Part shown: piece by piece, positions 10,381 through 55,297 of the stretch
Numbering within the stretch: position 1 is the stretch's first letter
How the letters are laid out: the number at the start of each line of letters is the position of its first letter
The notes under the pieces: generated by a model
Told to the model about the DNA's origin: nothing
The model's database searches: none
What the model saw: only the letters and a program-made list of their open reading frames with translations
NCBI GenBank assembly: GCA_005222965.1
Contig: NJBG01000001.1
Location: forward strand, 675,533 to 739,532
Length of the DNA stretch: 64,000 bases
Origin: Candidatus Woesearchaeota archaeon B3_Woes
Lineage (GTDB): Archaea > Nanobdellota > Nanobdellia > Woesearchaeales > B3-WOES
Reading direction: 5' to 3'
Made by a program: the position numbers and the translations under genes

Positions 10381-11997
10381 ATGGTTAAATATATCGTCGT
10401 AGCAGGAGGTGTAATGAGTGGTGTTGGCAAGGGTGTTACTACAGCTTCTATTGGCAAAATACTGCAAGAGTATGGATATAAAACAACAGCAATAAAAATA
10501 GACCCTTATATTAATTGTGACGCTGGAACACTAAGACCAACAGAACACGGAGAAGTATGGGTCACAGATGATGGAGGGGAAATTGACCAGGATTTAGGAA
10601 ACTATGAAAGGTTTTTAGATATAGATATTCTCAAAAAAAACAATATTACAACCGGTCAGGTCTATCAGGCAATAATAGAAAAAGAAAGAACAGGAAAATA
10701 CCTAGGGGAAACAGTACAATTTATTCCCCATGTTCCAGAAGAAATAAAGAAAAGAGTAAGAGAAGCTTCTGAAGGATATGATGTTTGTTTAATTGAAATA
10801 GGCGGAACAATAGGAGATTTTGAAAACCTCCCCTTCTTATTTGCAATGAAAAGCCTAGAAAGAGATTTAGGTAAAAATAACTTAATCTACATCTTAATAA
10901 CATATCTTCCTATTATGGGCCATCTAAAAGAAATGAAAACAAAACCAACACAACAAGCTATTAGATTATTAAGCGAAAACGGAATATTTCCTGATTTTAT
11001 TGTTTGTAGAGCTGTAAACCCTTTAGACGATGTTAGGAAAAAGAAAATAGAAACATACGCTAATATAGCTTCAAAATATGTTATCTCAGAACCAGATGTT
11101 AAAACAATATATGAAGTACCTCTTGATTTGGAAAAAGATGATTTAGGCAAAAAAATACTTGAAAAATTAGACCTAACTCCTAAAAAAACACCAGATTTTA
11201 AAGAATGGTCTAAGCTAGTTGATGCTATAAGAAATCCCAAAACAAAAAAGAAAATTGCTATAATTGGCAAGTATGTTGATATTGGAGATTATAATCTAAT
11301 AGATTCTTATTTGTCAATAAACCAGGCATTAATCCATGCCAGCAGTTTATTAGATGTTGGGGTAGATATGGAATGGATTGACAGTAAAAAACTTGAAAAT
11401 GATGAAAAAGAAGTTGAAAACCTGAAAAATTATGATGGAATAATTGTTCCAGGAGGATTTGGAACAAGTGGAACAGAAGGAAAAATAAAAGCAATTGAAT
11501 TTACAAGACTAAACAATATACCTTTCTTAGGATTGTGCTTAGGAATGCAATTTGCAGTAATAGAATTTGCAAGAAACGTTTGTAATCTAGAAGGTGCAAA
11601 TTCAGTAGAGATAAATCCAGACACAAAACATCCTGTTATAGATATGCTAGAAGAACAAAAAGAAATTCTTTATGAAAGCAGATATGGAGCATCTATGAGG
11701 CTTGGATCTTATCCAGCAGAACTAAAAAAAGACACAAAAGTATGGGAATTATATGGAAAAAAAGACAAAATACACGAAAGACACAGGCACAGATATGAAG
11801 TAAATCCAGAATTCATACAACAATTAGAAGAAAAAGGATTAGTATTTTCAGGTGTTTCTCCTGACAGAAAACTAATGGAATTTTTAGAACTACCTGATCA
11901 TAAATTCTTTGTAGCAACACAATCTCATCCTGAATTTAAATCAAGATTCGGAAAATCAGCACCTTTATTCTACGGATTTCTTAACTCCATGTTGTAA
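10381..11997 (+). CDS. pyrG: CTP synthase
   Basis: GGVMSGVGKG, KIDPYIN, KTKPTQ, GLCLGMQ, HPEF. Confidence 0.98.
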   Translation: MVKYIVVAGGVMSGVGKGVTTASIGKILQEYGYKTTAIKIDPYINCDAGTLRPTEHGEVWVTDDGGEIDQDLGNYERFLDIDILKKNNITTGQVYQAIIEKERTGKYLGETVQFIPHVPEEIKKRVREASEGYDVCLIEIGGTIGDFENLPFLFAMKSLERDLGKNNLIYILITYLPIMGHLKEMKTKPTQQAIRLLSENGIFPDFIVCRAVNPLDDVRKKKIETYANIASKYVISEPDVKTIYEVPLDLEKDDLGKKILEKLDLTPKKTPDFKEWSKLVDAIRNPKTKKKIAIIGKYVDIGDYNLIDSYLSINQALIHASSLLDVGVDMEWIDSKKLENDEKEVENLKNYDGIIVPGGFGTSGTEGKIKAIEFTRLNNIPFLGLCLGMQFAVIEFARNVCNLEGANSVEINPDTKHPVIDMLEEQKEILYESRYGASMRLGSYPAELKKDTKVWELYGKKDKIHERHRHRYEVNPEFIQQLEEKGLVFSGVSPDRKLMEFLELPDHKFFVATQSHPEFKSRFGKSAPLFYGFLNSML

Positions 11998-12021
11998 ACT
12001 TATTGATTACCCCCTTATTAG

Positions 12022-12053
12022 AAGATTATCAATAATAAACTATTGATAATCTT
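12022..12053. repeat. perfect 13-bp-arm palindrome with 6-bp spacer
   Basis: aagattatcaata-ataaac-tattgataatctt, immediately left of the cassette. Confidence 0.85.
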
Positions 12054-12054
12054 A

Positions 12055-12176
12055 TGTTAAGTTCAATTGTGTTTAAGTTCCCTCTTCTTTTAGAAAAAGA
12101 AGCAAAATGGGGGAGTTCAGGTACTACGTACATGTTGCATTTTACTTCGTAAAATCTATTTATCTAAAAATAGATA
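12055..12176. repeat. left structured end of cassette
   Basis: tgttaagttc (12055-64), ttgtgtttaagttcc (12067-81), tgggggagttcag (12108-20) plus local hairpins. Confidence 0.85.
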
Positions 12177-12261
12177 TTTCAATCAAAATTTTATTCCAAT
12201 AATTGATATGAAGAAGGTATTCCAGTAAAGTTTATTAACAAATAAAATAACCAATTCTATT

Positions 12262-15200
12262 ATGACTACAAATTCAAAAGACGAAATAAAAATGTCACCT
12301 AAAACATTTTATCGTTCAAGAAGACCGCAATATTTTTCAGATTCTAAAGTAACTATAAAAAATGAACTTCCAAGAGAAATTTTAGCTTATGAATTAGAAA
12401 AAATTACTGCAAATCAAAAAGAAAATGAATTTGAAAGTTTATGCAGACGACTGGCTGAAAAATTAATTTGTCCTAACCTAATTCCTCAAGTCGGTCCTAC
12501 AGGAGGCGGAGATGGTAAAACTGATTCTGAAACCTATCCTGTCTCTCCAAATATTTCTGACAGATGGTTTATTCCAGAAAAAGGATGGGATAATAATCAA
12601 AAGTGGGCATTTGCTATAAGTGCAAAAGAAAAATGGAGAGATAAAGTAAAAAGTGATGTTAAAAAAATAGTTGATACCAAAAGAGGATATACTAAAATAT
12701 TTTTTATGACAAATCAACTTGTATCAAGCAAGAAGAAAAAAGATAAACAAGATGAATTAAAAGATGAACATAAAATTGAAGTTATTATTCTTGATAAAGA
12801 ATGGATTTTAGAAAAAGTGTATGGTAATCAATTAATTGATATTGTAATAAATAGTTTAAATTTGACTCAATCTTATTCAAATAAAATAGAAGAAATAGGG
12901 TCTAATGATTCTTTAAGAAAAGAAGAATTAGAAGAAATTGAAAAAAATATTAATAACCCAAAATATTATGAGATTTATGATTTTCAATTAGTTGAAGACT
13001 CAATTAGATCTGCAATTTTATCTAGAGAATTAGAAAAACCAAAAGATGAAATAGAAGGAAAATTTCAAAGAGCTGAACGATTTTGTAAAAAAGTAAATCT
13101 AGATAAACAATGGCTAAGAATTTACTATCAAAAAGCGTGGACTTTTTTTTGGTGGTTCGAAGATTATGAAATGTTTATTGAGAATTATAAACTTTTTAAA
13201 ACATTTTTGAAAGATACAAATCAAATATTAGATGTAGAAAATTATATGAATTTATTTAATCTTCTTAGAGTTTGTTCTTCTAAAGTTGATTTAAAAAAGA
13301 TCGGTATTGATTTTAAAAAAGAGAAAGAAAACTTATTTGTTTTTATTGACAAAATTGAGAAAGATAAAGAAAGACCGAATTCTCAACTTACTGCCAAATC
13401 TTTTAAACTTATTATTGAGCTAACTGATAGTATTACTAGTAAAGGTGATAATTTAGACTTACTGCTTACTGAAATCAAAAATGTGCTAGTAAAAAGTGAA
13501 GATTATATTGAATTTCCATTCGAATCAACAAAAAATATTATTCAAGAAATAGGAAATATTATTTCTGATTTGAAGGAATATGATGAATTAATCGATATTT
13601 TAGTTAATATTTCTGAAAAACGTAACTCTCAAAGAGCAGCAGGTTTAATTTACTTTGAGAGAGGAAGACAATATTTCTTAAACGAAAAATACAACTCTTG
13701 TATTCAATATTTTGGTAAAGCTATTGTTAAATTATCTAAAGAAGAATCAAATGAGGAATTATTATATTTAATTTTTAGAGCTTTAAGTGAGTCATATAAA
13801 AATATGGGGCTAATATGGGCTTCATATAGTAGCAATGTTATGGCAACATATTATTCATTGAAACCATTTTTTAATAAACAAAGATTAACTAAAAATGCAA
13901 TTAATTGTCTTAAAGAAATGTGCTACATTGAATTAAAGATAGGAAGATTACCTTTGCTATTTTCATGGTATGAAGCATATTTTACCCTAGCAAAACAATT
14001 TAATATAAGAAATGAAGAAGATATAAGTTTTGGGGATGACTTAACCATAATAGATGGTTGTTTAGGGGTTAGGTTATTAAATTCAAAATGGAATCGTATT
14101 AAAACACAATCATTATTACCAGATGTATTGGAAAATTTAAATCTGTGGATGTCAAGAAAAGCATTAATATATTTATTAGGATATGAAGACTTGATCTGTA
14201 AGGAAAGTAATGATGACCAATTTGCGAAGGGAGAAAATCTAAATGAGTTTTTTACAAAATGGGCGAACCAACCATTCACCGAAGATATGGTTTATAGTAC
14301 TGAATTTTATAATGGTGAAGATATTACTTTAAAGTCAAAGGTTCTTGGAATTGAATTAGTTATTAATATTAAAAATGATTCAGATTCCATTCTTTATGCA
14401 GAAATGATATTAAGTCATGTTGAATCATTTTTTGCTACTAGTTTAAACAAAATATATCCTAAAAAGGATAAAATTAGTATTAATCTCATATTAGAAGAAA
14501 ATGATAAATCGGTTTCATTCAAATCAAATAATAATGGTAAATATAATTATGAATTTATAATTGATATTTCAAAAATTAACAAATCTAGTGAAAAAAATAC
14601 TTTGCCCGATGAATTAAAATCATTCATTATAGATTTATTTTCTAAGCATTTAATAATTGATAATGTTGAAAAATATTTCAAAGACCTATTTGAGCAAGAA
14701 GAAGTTCAAGAAAGAATTGCTTTTAGCTACAATCATCCTATAATTATTAAAAATATTTTAGGAGAATCACCTAAATTTCATTTGAAAAACTGGACAGAAC
14801 TCAGTAAATTAAAAAAATATGATTTAAAGCGTAAAGAACCAATTATATTTACAAATAAAAACGAAGATTCTTCAACATCTAAAAAAATTAATGACTTAAG
14901 TAATTTACGCCATGATAATCGAAAAATGGTCTCATTTATTAATATAGATTTATGGGATAAAGCTAAATGGGAGGGAGTAGGTTTAGGTTTTCATCCTAAA
15001 TTAGGACCTTTTATTGCAATCTGTTTTCAAGACATAGCAATTGGAAAACAAATATTTAAAGAATTAATTGATAAAATTGGAAAGACAGATACAAATGAGA
15101 AACTTCGTCTCTCTATAATTAGAGGTACAAATAAAAAACATCCTCATTGGTATAAAGTTCATTTAGGAACAAATTTAAATAAATTTGAGTTTAAAGAAAA

Positions 15201-15513
15201 AACATACATAACTGCTTCCAGAATTCACGAGATGAATCCTTATAATGATACAAATATTAAAAATTTTATTGAATTATATAGGGAACATAAAGAATATTAT
15301 TTAATGCCTGGGAAGATGTCGCTAGACAAAAAAGGAGTTGAACCATTTTTCGAATTAGGAATTAAAAAAAAGGAATTAAATATATCCTTTGCTTGGAAGA
15401 TTGATAGAAATAATCCTGATTTGGTAGTAATTCGAGAAGGTGATGAACCTTATATTCCTGATGATGTTAAGGATGCACCCGTAAACGATTTATTAAAAAA
15501 AATCAAAAAATAA
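12262..15513 (+). CDS. 1083-aa protein: N-terminal PD-(D/E)XK/Mrr-like nuclease fold plus TPR-like helical region; candidate defence protein
   Basis: FESLCRRL..GGGDGKTD..AFAISAK N-terminal pattern; TPR-like segment YFERGRQYF..YFGKAIVKL..ALSESYKNMG. Confidence 0.6.
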   Translation: MTTNSKDEIKMSPKTFYRSRRPQYFSDSKVTIKNELPREILAYELEKITANQKENEFESLCRRLAEKLICPNLIPQVGPTGGGDGKTDSETYPVSPNISDRWFIPEKGWDNNQKWAFAISAKEKWRDKVKSDVKKIVDTKRGYTKIFFMTNQLVSSKKKKDKQDELKDEHKIEVIILDKEWILEKVYGNQLIDIVINSLNLTQSYSNKIEEIGSNDSLRKEELEEIEKNINNPKYYEIYDFQLVEDSIRSAILSRELEKPKDEIEGKFQRAERFCKKVNLDKQWLRIYYQKAWTFFWWFEDYEMFIENYKLFKTFLKDTNQILDVENYMNLFNLLRVCSSKVDLKKIGIDFKKEKENLFVFIDKIEKDKERPNSQLTAKSFKLIIELTDSITSKGDNLDLLLTEIKNVLVKSEDYIEFPFESTKNIIQEIGNIISDLKEYDELIDILVNISEKRNSQRAAGLIYFERGRQYFLNEKYNSCIQYFGKAIVKLSKEESNEELLYLIFRALSESYKNMGLIWASYSSNVMATYYSLKPFFNKQRLTKNAINCLKEMCYIELKIGRLPLLFSWYEAYFTLAKQFNIRNEEDISFGDDLTIIDGCLGVRLLNSKWNRIKTQSLLPDVLENLNLWMSRKALIYLLGYEDLICKESNDDQFAKGENLNEFFTKWANQPFTEDMVYSTEFYNGEDITLKSKVLGIELVINIKNDSDSILYAEMILSHVESFFATSLNKIYPKKDKISINLILEENDKSVSFKSNNNGKYNYEFIIDISKINKSSEKNTLPDELKSFIIDLFSKHLIIDNVEKYFKDLFEQEEVQERIAFSYNHPIIIKNILGESPKFHLKNWTELSKLKKYDLKRKEPIIFTNKNEDSSTSKKINDLSNLRHDNRKMVSFINIDLWDKAKWEGVGLGFHPKLGPFIAICFQDIAIGKQIFKELIDKIGKTDTNEKLRLSIIRGTNKKHPHWYKVHLGTNLNKFEFKEKTYITASRIHEMNPYNDTNIKNFIELYREHKEYYLMPGKMSLDKKGVEPFFELGIKKKELNISFAWKIDRNNPDLVVIREGDEPYIPDDVKDAPVNDLLKKIKK

Positions 15514-15539
15514 TTCTTTTTTATACTTGTTCTTAATGT

Positions 15540-15680
15540 GTCGCTTCGCTCTTTTGAAGGAACTGAACTCCCCCAGTGCTACGCACATATAGTCTTGACT
15601 TTGTCAAGAATTTATTGGAACTTAAACACAACTCTGCGGACGCAGTTTTCCCACACTTTGTATTGTAAAAGAACTTAACA
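15540..15680. repeat. right structured end of cassette
   Basis: ctgaactccccca (15563-75), ggaacttaaacacaa (15617-31), gaacttaaca (15671-80) plus local hairpins. Confidence 0.85.
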
Positions 15681-15769
15681 AGACCCAATGTTAGACAATA
15701 TAACTCCTTCTAATGCAGCAACGCATTAATTACGAAACCTTTATAAAATACTTATTTATTTCAGTTGAT

Positions 15770-17104
15770 ATGGGGGAAGAAGAACAGAAGAAAGAGGAAC
15801 ATGCTGAAGAAGAGAATTCTATTCATGAAACTATTGAAGAACCTAAATCAGAAGAAGATATCTATAAGAAAGAAGACAGAAAAGAAATGGTGGATGATGC
15901 TGAAATAAGTCCTGAAGAAGAAGGATTTATGAAAGGTTATGATAAAGCAGATGAAGAAAAACCAGAAGAAAAAGTTGAAGAACAACCTAAAAAAGAACTA
16001 ATCGAAGAAAAAAAAGAAAAACAAACAAAAAAAGAAAAACATAAAGAAAAAGTAAAAAAAGAAAAAAAAACTCTAAAACAAACAATAAAACACTTATATG
16101 AAAAAAAATACAAAAAATTACTAATCATTCCATTCACTTTACTAATACTTTCTTTAATTCTAATAGGAATTCAAATAGCAACAACTGGAGATTTTATAAG
16201 AAAAGACGTAAGCCTAAGTGGCGGAATAACAATAACAATCCAATCAGATAAAGACGTAAATGTTCTTGATATTAAAGATTATTTAAACAATCAATTCCCT
16301 GATTCAGAGCTATCTGTTAGAGGCCTAAAACAAACAGGAAGACAAATCGGATTAATAATTGAAGGAACAGAAGATATTGAATCAGAACAAATAATTACTT
16401 CTCTAACTTCAAAAATAGGTGAATTAGAAAAAGATCAATACAGCGTTGCTGTAATGGGTTCTAGCCTAGGGGCAAGCTTTTTCAGAGAAACAATCAAAGC
16501 AATATACATTTCATTCCTTTTTATGGGCATTGTTATCTTCTTATATTTTAGCAAAGGAACCAAAATAAAAATAATATCAACATTTCTTACTCTTATTGCA
16601 GCTATGTTAATGTTTGGTGGAAGCCACTCAACACTAAAAAGTGTAATAGCATATCTTATTGGAATAACTCTACTTGTAATTTATTTTAAAAAAAGCATTC
16701 CTAGCTTTGTGGTTATCCTTAATGTTTTCTCAGATGTCATTGTCACACTAGCCATAATAGACTTAATTGGTATGAAACTATCTACAGCAGGAATCGCAGC
16801 ATTCCTAATGATTATTGGTTATTCTGTTGATACTAACATATTATTATCTACTAAACTTCTCAAAAGAAAAGAAGGAACAGTTTTTGAGAGGCTTATTGGT
16901 TCTATGAAAACAGGATTAACAATGACACTAACAACATCAGTAGCAATAATTGTAGCACTTATGTTTACACAATCTAGTGTTATACAGCAAATAATGACCA
17001 TACTATTTATTGGATTGATAGTAGATATGATATATACATGGCTGCAAAATGCAGGAATCCTAAGATTATACTTAGACAAAAAAAACAATGAAACACAAAG
17101 CTAA
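15770..17104 (+). CDS. secF: protein translocase subunit SecF with long acidic/charged N-terminal extension
   Basis: DVSLSGG, AGIAAFLMIIGYSVDTNILL; start MGEEEQK downstream of BRE/TATA. Confidence 0.88.
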   Translation: MGEEEQKKEEHAEEENSIHETIEEPKSEEDIYKKEDRKEMVDDAEISPEEEGFMKGYDKADEEKPEEKVEEQPKKELIEEKKEKQTKKEKHKEKVKKEKKTLKQTIKHLYEKKYKKLLIIPFTLLILSLILIGIQIATTGDFIRKDVSLSGGITITIQSDKDVNVLDIKDYLNNQFPDSELSVRGLKQTGRQIGLIIEGTEDIESEQIITSLTSKIGELEKDQYSVAVMGSSLGASFFRETIKAIYISFLFMGIVIFLYFSKGTKIKIISTFLTLIAAMLMFGGSHSTLKSVIAYLIGITLLVIYFKKSIPSFVVILNVFSDVIVTLAIIDLIGMKLSTAGIAAFLMIIGYSVDTNILLSTKLLKRKEGTVFERLIGSMKTGLTMTLTTSVAIIVALMFTQSSVIQQIMTILFIGLIVDMIYTWLQNAGILRLYLDKKNNETQS

Positions 17105-19670: not shown

Positions 19671-19768
19671 GCCTCCATAGCTTAGTAGGTAGAGCGTGCG
19701 ACTGTTAATCGCAAGGTCGGCAGAAACGATATAAAAGTCGTTGTCGAATTCAAGTCTGCCTGGAGGCG
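19671..19768 (+). tRNA. tRNA-Asn(GTT) with 25-nt intron at 53/54 (19724-19748)
   Basis: Removing aaacgatataaaagtcgttgtcgaa restores the GGCAG-TTCAAGT-CTGCC T arm; BHB-like junction. Confidence 0.92.
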
Positions 19769-55136: not shown

Positions 55137-55297
55137 TGCTCCTAAGGGGATTTGAACCCCTGTCTCAGGCTTTTTCTAACAGATTATGCGAGCGTTTAGC
55201 GAGCAAGTGTGGCTTTATGCCGCACCTTGCGTGTCAACCGCGCGTAACCAGTTGTTGCGAGAAGCCTACATGCTTGACCGGACTACACTATAGGAGC
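55137..55297 (-). tRNA. tRNA-Glu(CTC) with 86-nt intron at 37/38 (55172-55257)
   Basis: GCTCCTA/TAGGAGC acceptor; canonical BHB with TTCT/AGAA helix and CGC, AAA bulges. Confidence 0.93.

Follow-up and report, generated by a model that had tools for sequence, protein, structure and literature searches.

The locus described here lies in a 64,000-nucleotide stretch of the genome of Candidatus Woesearchaeota archaeon B3_Woes (contig NJBG01000001.1, positions 675,533 to 739,532 of the forward strand), which we call the window; the source genome measures 1.02 Mb and is 96% complete. Downstream of pyrG (10381-11997) and ahead of a secD-like gene stands a cassette with a single open reading frame (ORF), and both ends of this cassette carry conserved blocks and small hairpins (Table 1). 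Positions are those of the window unless prefixed C1, which denotes a contig of the same genome (1,000,545 nt, 30% G+C).

A preliminary description of the window had placed hairpins at 12121-31, 12140-54, 15543-49, 15576-86, 12084-102, 12161-76, 15593-609 and 15634-45, and a reading of the sequence from 11700 to 16100 bore out all of these coordinates. The first four have a triloop that reads TNC on the plus strand and GNA on the minus strand, giving cGNAg hairpins on the latter. Their stems are at least 4 bp long in three of the four cases, the exception being 15543-49 with 2 bp, and the hairpin at 12140-54 has 7 bp when read as 12139-55. The conserved blocks around them are inverted, and include two exact 13-mers, 12108-20(+)/15563-75(-) and 12069-81(+)/15617-29(-). 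That the mini-hairpins are nevertheless co-oriented, as the same description had remarked, is true and has an anatomical cause: left and right hairpins share their polarity because the left pair copy, in direct orientation, the right-end module formed by the hairpins hp1 and hp2. This module is directly repeated behind the boxes B and B', with the clamps themselves inverted (both ends of seven cassettes and 106 further left ends), and the left-end copies of hp1 and hp2 retain short spacer words that are found 3' of hp1 and hp2 at the right end. Within the set of seven complete cassettes, the copied module was found in five left ends.

Perfect hairpins with a stem of at least 4 bp and a C-G-closed TNC or GNA triloop are rare in contig C1 (29 in total; 12 TNC and 17 GNA on the plus strand). 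Three of the 12 TNC hairpins stand in the ends of the window cassette and one in a sister cassette described below, against an expectation of ~0.01 such hairpins in ~300 nt. The mini-hairpins at the cassette ends thus exceed chance.

Table 1. Features of the cassette and of the site that holds it, in window positions.
Feature	Position	Strand	Remarks
Recombination-site hairpin, pre-existing, solo	12014-12061	+	21-nt arms, 86% complementary; 3' arm has the left GTTA core (12056-12059)
Predicted cassette unit	12057-15690	+	~3634 nt; from TTA, behind the left G, up to the G of the right ATG|TTA
Clamp box A	12061-12081	+	pairs with A' (15617-15631)
hp5	12084-12102	+	hairpin between A and B; sequence conserved in many left ends
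Clamp box B, G-run	12108-12120	+	exact reverse complement of B' (15563-15575)
Left copy of hp1, GTAC-TAC-GTAC	12121-12131	+	direct orientation; cGTAg on bottom strand
Left copy of hp2, ATTTTAC-TTC-GTAAAAT	12139-12155	+	direct orientation; cGAAg on bottom strand
Extra AT hairpin, TATCTA-AAAA-TAGATA	12161-12176	+	5' of the ORF; conservation elsewhere none seen
Cargo ORF, 1083 aa	12262-15513	+	uncharacterised, mostly bacterial family
Right-end upstream block, conserved	15523-15562	+	includes GCTTCGC at 15543-49 (2-bp mini-hairpin; GCGAAGC on bottom strand)
Clamp box B', C-run	15563-15575	+	partner of B
hp1, GTGC-TAC-GCAC	15576-15586	+	TNC loop in 14/14 aligned homologues; stem covaries GC/CG
hp2, TCTTGAC-TTT-GTCAAGA	15593-15609	+	TNC in 12/14 homologues; window copy is one of the two exceptions
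Clamp box A'	15617-15631	+	partner of A
hp3, CTGC-GGAC-GCAG	15634-15645	+	loop favours top strand
hp4, degenerate here	15646-15670	+	in the family an 11-position stem, conserved C.A (bottom T.G), TNC or TTGC loop
Crossover hairpin	15671-15698	+	5' arm 15671-80, loop 15681-88, hybrid 3' arm 15689-98

When the two ends were joined by script, as they would be in a circle, they folded into one branched palindrome of ~300 nt, in which B'/B (13 bp) closes around hp1, hp2 and A'/A (~16 bp), and A'/A in turn closes around hp3, hp4 and a crossover hairpin of 10 perfect bp. Both strands fold in this way, under RNA as under DNA parameters (z = -6.8 to -9.8 vs mononucleotide shuffles). In the crossover hairpin the 5' arm and the cassette start (12055-64) are exact reverse complements, and the 3' arm contains the right GTTA core (15690-93). 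ATGTTA is directly repeated at the cassette borders (12054-59 and 15688-93). At the left border the cassette is inserted inside the solo site hairpin, of which 12015-12059 is 98% identical to C1:197988-198032, ahead of another cassette, with the homology ending at ATGTTA. This 45-nt palindromic segment stands directly before the first cassette in both places, one copy lying ~60 nt downstream of a tRNA gene, and on its sequence it looks like a portable solo attachment site. In most copies of hp2 the 3' arm has a 2-nt bulge (TC, top strand; alignment columns 33-34), a further asymmetry that is conserved and recalls the extrahelical bases of attC sites.

The same layout recurs in a sister cassette at C1:104141-106284, and two further cassettes with other clamp sequences and the same logic, one with an asd-like gene and one with a membrane protein, occupy C1:198033-199330 and 199331-200450, respectively. 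Among seven complete cassettes, drawn from four genomes, B and B' matched at 11-13 of 13 positions and A and A' at 10-14 of 14. The box sequences vary from cassette to cassette; since they differ among cassettes yet match within each, the two ends of one cassette covary. Of 60 relatives from the same order, 24 had the right end, often more than once. Contig C4 of genome G021 has nine matches on one strand within 31 kb, an array. The right-end profile was also matched by 44 of 123 loci from a pattern scan of genome contigs (those titles of the 123 that were read named Woesearchaeota, Pacearchaeota or Nanoarchaeota metagenome-assembled genomes, a few being labelled otherwise), and a 19-base word from box A occurred in more than 121 metagenome stretches.

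Across 87 left ends from the box-A scan, GTTA was 85-98% conserved and the information directly upstream was below 0.55 bit per position. Because conservation collapses just upstream of GTTA, the crossover is placed at or beside G|TTA. The 5' arm of the crossover hairpin paired better with the cassette's own start than with the downstream neighbour in five of five cassettes, scored by eye (10 vs 6, 10 vs 8, 10 vs 8, 9 vs 7 and 8 vs 7), and the loops or spacers adjoining the two junction sites shared no homology.

Contigs of four metagenome runs were compared at the window locus. One contig of run X4 joins 11998 to 15727 directly, with four other letters between them (side 84, depth 81), and is a related strain without the insert, missing 11999-15726. 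Contig depth reached 164 and 106 over the right-end modules vs ~5 inside the cassette, and many contigs diverge at module borders, immediately ahead of 15576 and of 15630 and immediately behind 15680. By synteny no empty site was found, as none of 29 pyrG loci of relatives had the secD-like gene or the right-end profile downstream, and a metagenome scan with the cargo protein, to find the cargo in other contexts, gave no relative. The small hairpins appear as conserved structural modules of mobile gene cassette ends.

Several less regular arrangements were seen beside these. A partial copy at C1:127124-127192(-) comprises hp3-hp4 and the beginning of a long crossover site, and in another, at ~C1:906100, a copy-4-type cassette begins behind a short crossover hairpin. 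At some junctions several G-run or C-run boxes are stacked, each with an hp1-hp2 module behind it (L039 5190-5930; L204, upstream of xerA in G028), and many left ends have a second B-like box after the copy of hp2; some cassettes therefore have three nested clamps.

We then compared strand bias and stem pairing across homologous ends, the two properties on whose absence the preliminary description had said its single-strand reading would founder; both were present. A first sample of 64 oriented element regions, anchored on hp3-hp4, was searched for unique perfect hairpins with a stem of at least 4 bp and a C-G-closed triloop. On the top strand there were 32 TNC and 0 GNA loops beside 166 other loops, the TNC hairpins falling in the upstream block (9), the core (15) and the region downstream (8). 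A second sample, of metagenome regions anchored on box A only and hence blind to hairpins, gave 49 TNC vs 2 GNA (left ends 19 vs 0; preceding right ends 30 vs 2), and its tetraloops showed the same preference (cTNNCg 13 vs cGNNAg 0). The genome background, in contrast, was unbiased (the 12 TNC vs 17 GNA of C1). The cumulative GC skew of C1 falls monotonically without a turning point, so that leading and lagging strands are unassignable.

For the covariation test, RNAalifold on a 25-sequence alignment recovered hp1 only, owing to gaps, and the hp1-hp4 structure was written by hand. In 14 distinct aligned hp1-hp4 segments, 91.8% of cells pair vs 83.2% after shuffling, no slid register does as well, and 8 of 23 pairs show compensatory changes, values that 0 of 500 shuffles reached. 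As the stems covary while their sequence is free, the hairpins fold in a single strand. The loops read TNC in all 14 copies of hp1, in 12 of hp2 and in 8 of hp4 (with TTGC, read GCAA on the bottom strand, in a further 3), and GGAC in 13 of hp3. Loop positions 1 and 3 are fixed and the middle base is T, A, G or C, which is the d(cGNAg) pattern on the bottom strand, and the C.A of hp4 on the top strand (T.G on the bottom) is retained in 13 of 14 copies. Loop polarity was independent of cargo orientation (five cassettes code on the top strand, four on the bottom), which speaks against terminators and structures of untranslated regions.

The left end of the sister cassette is separated by 148 bp from the divergently transcribed gene for a 276-aa XerA-type tyrosine recombinase (C1:103166-103993). 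The protein scored just above the curated cut-off of NF040815 (221.8 bits vs 220) and below that of the integron-integrase model TIGR02249 (165.3 bits vs 265), which it matched in two pieces, 2-182 and 235-315, with model positions 183-234 missing. No protein in the genome exceeded the TIGR02249 cut-off. Two PF00589 genes were found in the genome, this one included, and a search of the 96% complete genome for Y1 transposase (PF01797) gave 0 matches. The cassettes themselves encode no recombinase.

The 520 nt upstream of xerA were surveyed at 30 loci of relatives (L203-L232) and labelled by eye. A cassette platform, meaning a hairpin, then G|TTA, then cassette features or the contig end, was present at 8 of the 30; 12 had a canonical dif-like palindrome instead, and 10 could be assigned to neither context. 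In a maximum-likelihood tree, the eight platform-linked XerA proteins fall in two clades with 100/99 support, and the protein of the window's genome belongs to a platform-linked clade (100/99). The platform label changes three times on the tree, and 0 of 500 shuffles needed that few, the labels being assigned by eye and shared among related genomes. On these comparisons, Woesearchaeota appear to have a cassette system that resembles integrons and is linked to a XerA-type tyrosine recombinase.

Further details of the platforms were seen by eye. Two direct and one inverted GTCCAGTG-like word stand between xerA and the core hairpin, and from their sequence these words may be accessory binding sites. 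The contigs of three relatives (L205, L216 and L231) stop at the GTTA upstream of xerA or a few bases beyond it, and many other xerA genes lie less than 700 nt from a contig start, which suggests that assemblies break at variable cassette arrays. Regular expressions, a weak search, did not find a canonical dif-like palindrome in the genome. Because of this and because only two tyrosine recombinase genes are present, the platform-linked XerA may also be the sole chromosome-resolution enzyme of this genome.

From these results we derive the following model. The two ends of a cassette would meet in a circular or looped form as one branched palindrome, at whose centre a small hairpin with dif-arm-like arms would present the crossover at G|TTA in its 3' arm. 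The TNC loops of hp1-hp2, hp4 and several other hairpins would form very stable d(cGNAg) mini-hairpins on the bottom strand. The recombinase would then exchange one strand of folded bottom-strand single-stranded DNA (ssDNA), as happens at integron attC sites and in CTX-phage/XerCD recombination. Such a one-strand exchange, completed by replication, would agree with the missing spacer homology at the junctions and is the course described for integrons in PMC2727003. Within the large site the cGNAg hairpins might act as folding nuclei that resist SSB, the protein that binds single-stranded DNA, or, alternatively, as priming signals on a single-stranded cassette circle. For such mini-hairpins PMC13037366 reports a melting temperature of 76.5 C for d(GCGAAGC) vs 39 C for an RNA counterpart and 33 C for a T-loop variant, poor binding by SSB, and occurrence at ssDNA priming sites.

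We regard bottom-strand ssDNA as the most likely recombination substrate, a judgement in which confidence and doubt are about evenly balanced. The fuller proposal is more tentative and falls somewhat short of an even chance: that DPANN archaea including Woesearchaeota evolved from XerA a counterpart of the integron, in which cassettes with private clamps at their ends would fold as bottom-strand ssDNA into a large branched site, cGNAg hairpins would either nucleate this fold in the face of SSB or prime synthesis of the second strand, and XerA would exchange one strand at G|TTA. The preliminary description had gone further, naming folded bottom-strand DNA as the substrate rather than RNA or duplex DNA. 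Its first half is favoured by the strand bias and the covariation; the exclusion of RNA and of duplex DNA goes further than these results. Folding both strands, as it had proposed, showed that both fold, but the energies were identical with DNA parameters and did not tell the strands apart. A look-up of RNA runs gave none that contains the locus. Its appeal to the exceptional stability of cGNAg loops in DNA agrees with PMC13037366, while the analogy that it drew with attC sites proved loose, the terminal loop being of minor importance there according to PMC2727003.

A number of observations weigh against bottom-strand ssDNA as the substrate and against the XerA-based model. The DNA parameter set that yields equal energies for the two strands contains no loop bonus. 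With these parameters two of the four mini-hairpins, 15543-49 and 12121-31, are predicted to be unfolded, and the remaining ones fold at only -1.6 to -1.7 kcal/mol; at the place equivalent to 15543-49 the triloop is absent from most homologues, and the window's own hp2 and hp4 carry TTT loops. The top strand is favoured by the hp3 loop GGAC (13 of 14 copies), which is stabler there, and by a T.G wobble in the stem of the upstream block, and wobbles outside the inherited hp4 position are balanced (6 top vs 4 bottom). Hairpins at homologous positions are not independent, so that the polarity counts reduce to ~6-7 independent positions, two of which duplicate two others. In the attC experiments of PMC2727003, the terminal loop had a minor effect (GAA 1.6-fold up, TTC 2.4-fold down), and it is extrahelical bases that choose the strand in integrons. 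As to the recombinase, the platform labels depend on judgement by eye, the right-end profile matches only 4 of the 30 xerA loci, and the G021 array has no recombinase within 40 kb.

Among the alternatives, the one that survives best is that the active form of the site is duplex DNA or an extruded cruciform, the palindromes being protein sites and the polarity reflecting sequence-specific contacts. As duplex, the crossover hairpin is a classical tyrosine-recombinase core of 10-bp inverted arms and an 8-bp spacer, XerA works on duplex dif (PMC2958812), hp3 favours the top strand, and the GTCCAGTG-like motifs that recur between xerA and the core resemble accessory duplex binding sites. We nevertheless consider this unlikely: stem sequence is free while pairing is kept, to the point that hp2 stems are wholly different among copies, which suits folding better than a sequence-specific duplex site, and the junction spacers lack the homology that classical two-strand exchange needs.

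Somewhat less probable still is that the hairpins fold in RNA, in either a bottom-strand transcript or a top-strand array transcript, as a processing, stabilising or guide structure that serves the cassette or the recombinase. Covariation shows pairing without telling RNA from ssDNA, and RNA parameters fold the joined ends just as well (-90.8 and -98.4 kcal/mol). The bottom-strand GCAA in 3 of 14 hp4 copies would be a GNRA loop, the hp4 mismatch would be a G.U pair in a bottom-strand RNA, and top-strand G.T pairs also exist (6 cells). Yet a loop polarity kept regardless of gene orientation is hard to reconcile with a transcript, and the loops are triloops in a register fixed by covariation, hence not UNCG tetraloops. 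The mini-hairpin is far less stable in its RNA form, as the melting temperatures quoted above from PMC13037366 show, and the clamps lie 0.6-3.5 kb apart, flanking the cargo. No Rfam family was found at the cassette ends at E values up to 10. A split known non-coding RNA was considered and rejected, as the Rfam search over 11950-15800 at E up to 10 returned chance snoRNA-like matches in the ORF only; neither a tRNA nor a tmRNA was found at the cassette ends, and a scan of the whole window at gathering scores gave tRNAs only.

The polarity might also be without function, an ancestral TNC module having been duplicated in direct orientation and then inherited by all copies. The left copies of hp1 and hp2 are evident duplicates, and the polarity counts come from related sequences, as this account would have it. 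It would not readily explain why loop bases 1 and 3 stay constant where the middle base and the stems change, why unrelated positions, namely the upstream block, hp4 and hairpins in long crossover sites, have this polarity too, or why the genome background is unbiased, and we hold it to be improbable.

An ordinary integron cassette with a canonical attC site and an integron integrase is a very remote prospect. The R''/R' boxes of attC sites have the consensus RYYYAAC / GTTRRRY, which the crossover arms ACTTAAC (15673-79) and GTTAAGT (12056-62) fit, and archaeal integrons are known (Ghaly et al. 2022, PMC9668308); against this, the site has no L box, no unpaired central spacer and no 57-141-nt hairpin, the cassette's 5' end also carries conserved structure over ~100 nt, and no IntI accompanies it, given the sub-threshold TIGR02249 score with its missing segment. 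Ends of an IS200/IS605-type single-strand transposon or a derivative, which would account for subterminal hairpins of one strand polarity, insertion beside a short conserved word and the lack of a target duplication beyond the shared core, are the least probable of all, with no Y1 transposase in the genome, long inverted clamps, and arrays beside a tyrosine recombinase gene.

At least 595 proteins are full-length homologues of the cargo protein, with 40-50% identity; the closest is 81% identical, and those with names come from diverse bacteria (Flexistipes, Leptospira, Cyanobacterium and others). It matched nothing in Pfam, NCBIfam, PADLOC or PDB sequences. An Atlas lead pointed to TPR proteins, and a neighbouring cluster has a Cap4-type nuclease on 26% of its members; judged from its sequence relatives, the cargo may be a defence-type gene acquired across domains. 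Elsewhere in the window, Rfam tRNA matches of 98 and 161 nt at 19671-19768 and 55137-55297 are absent from the ARAGORN output and are probably intron-containing archaeal tRNA genes.

What is new here is the family-wide strand polarity of the mini-hairpins, together with its anatomical cause. Integrons are the textbook case of recombination via folded ssDNA, and that case is tied to one dedicated integrase family. If our model is true, an independent XerA-based platform in genome-reduced archaea would show that the folded-ssDNA strategy arose more than once. It would also offer host-dependent cells a route by which to gain accessory, often bacterial, genes, including cross-domain capture of genes such as the 1083-aa cargo. 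The mini-hairpin polarity would be the first sequence-level clue to the strand used, and it makes the single-strand hypothesis testable at the bench. Canonical archaeal integrons and XerA/dif have been described, and our literature search, which did not cover supplements, found no account of the present arrangement and no paper that joins Woesearchaeota and integron.

The small hairpins have a counterpart in the mini-hairpin DNA d(GCGNAGC)/d(cGNAg), with which they share C-G-closed GNA triloops, on one strand and clustered in a structured non-coding element. PMC13037366 places such d(cGNAg) mini-hairpins at the phage G4 origin and at the RSF1010 ssiA ssDNA initiation sites. Most stems in the cassette ends have 4-7 bp, whereas those have 2 bp. 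The archaeal XerA/dif system has in common with the cassettes the recombinase family (NF040815) and sites with inverted arms. Archaeal dif is described as having 11-bp arms and a 6-bp spacer, with one site per chromosome, not beside xerA in Thermococcales (Cortez et al. 2010, PMC2958812). The sites described here, unlike dif, occur in several copies at the borders of gene cassettes, and they have loops of 8-10 nt or long inserts.

The closest parallels are with integrons and with the integrative elements exploiting Xer (IMEX). As in integrons, the cassettes are promoter-less and carry single genes, solo or in co-oriented arrays, and the platform has a divergently transcribed tyrosine recombinase gene. 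The crossover G|TT lies in a hairpin, within its 3' arm, and the 5' arm of that hairpin pairs with the bases that open the cassette; the absence of spacer homology at the junctions suggests one-strand exchange; like some attC sites (PMC2727003), the ends have GAA-type terminal loops on the bottom strand. Unlike in integrons, the recombinase is XerA-type and without the IntI-specific segment, and each cassette has private clamps and ~100 nt of conserved 5' structure. The crossover hairpin differs from attC in being only 28 nt long (10-bp arms, 8-nt loop) with no L box or central spacer, although longer variants with an inner stem occur in relatives, and in its central rather than basal place within a ~300-nt branched structure made of both ends. 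IMEX include CTX phage, whose ssDNA integrates via XerCD (PMC3442271, PMC5357621); as PMC3442271 outlines it, a folded single strand mimics the site, one strand pair is exchanged and replication completes the process. The cassettes resemble IMEX in having no recombinase of their own, and may likewise use a housekeeping-type Xer; they differ from IMEX such as CTX in being small single-gene units in arrays and not phages; given their own clades, the platform-linked XerA proteins may be specialised. The system as we describe it would work like an integron and like IMEX and belongs to neither: it lacks an IntI and the architecture of attC, and both cassette ends, with their private clamps, together form its site.

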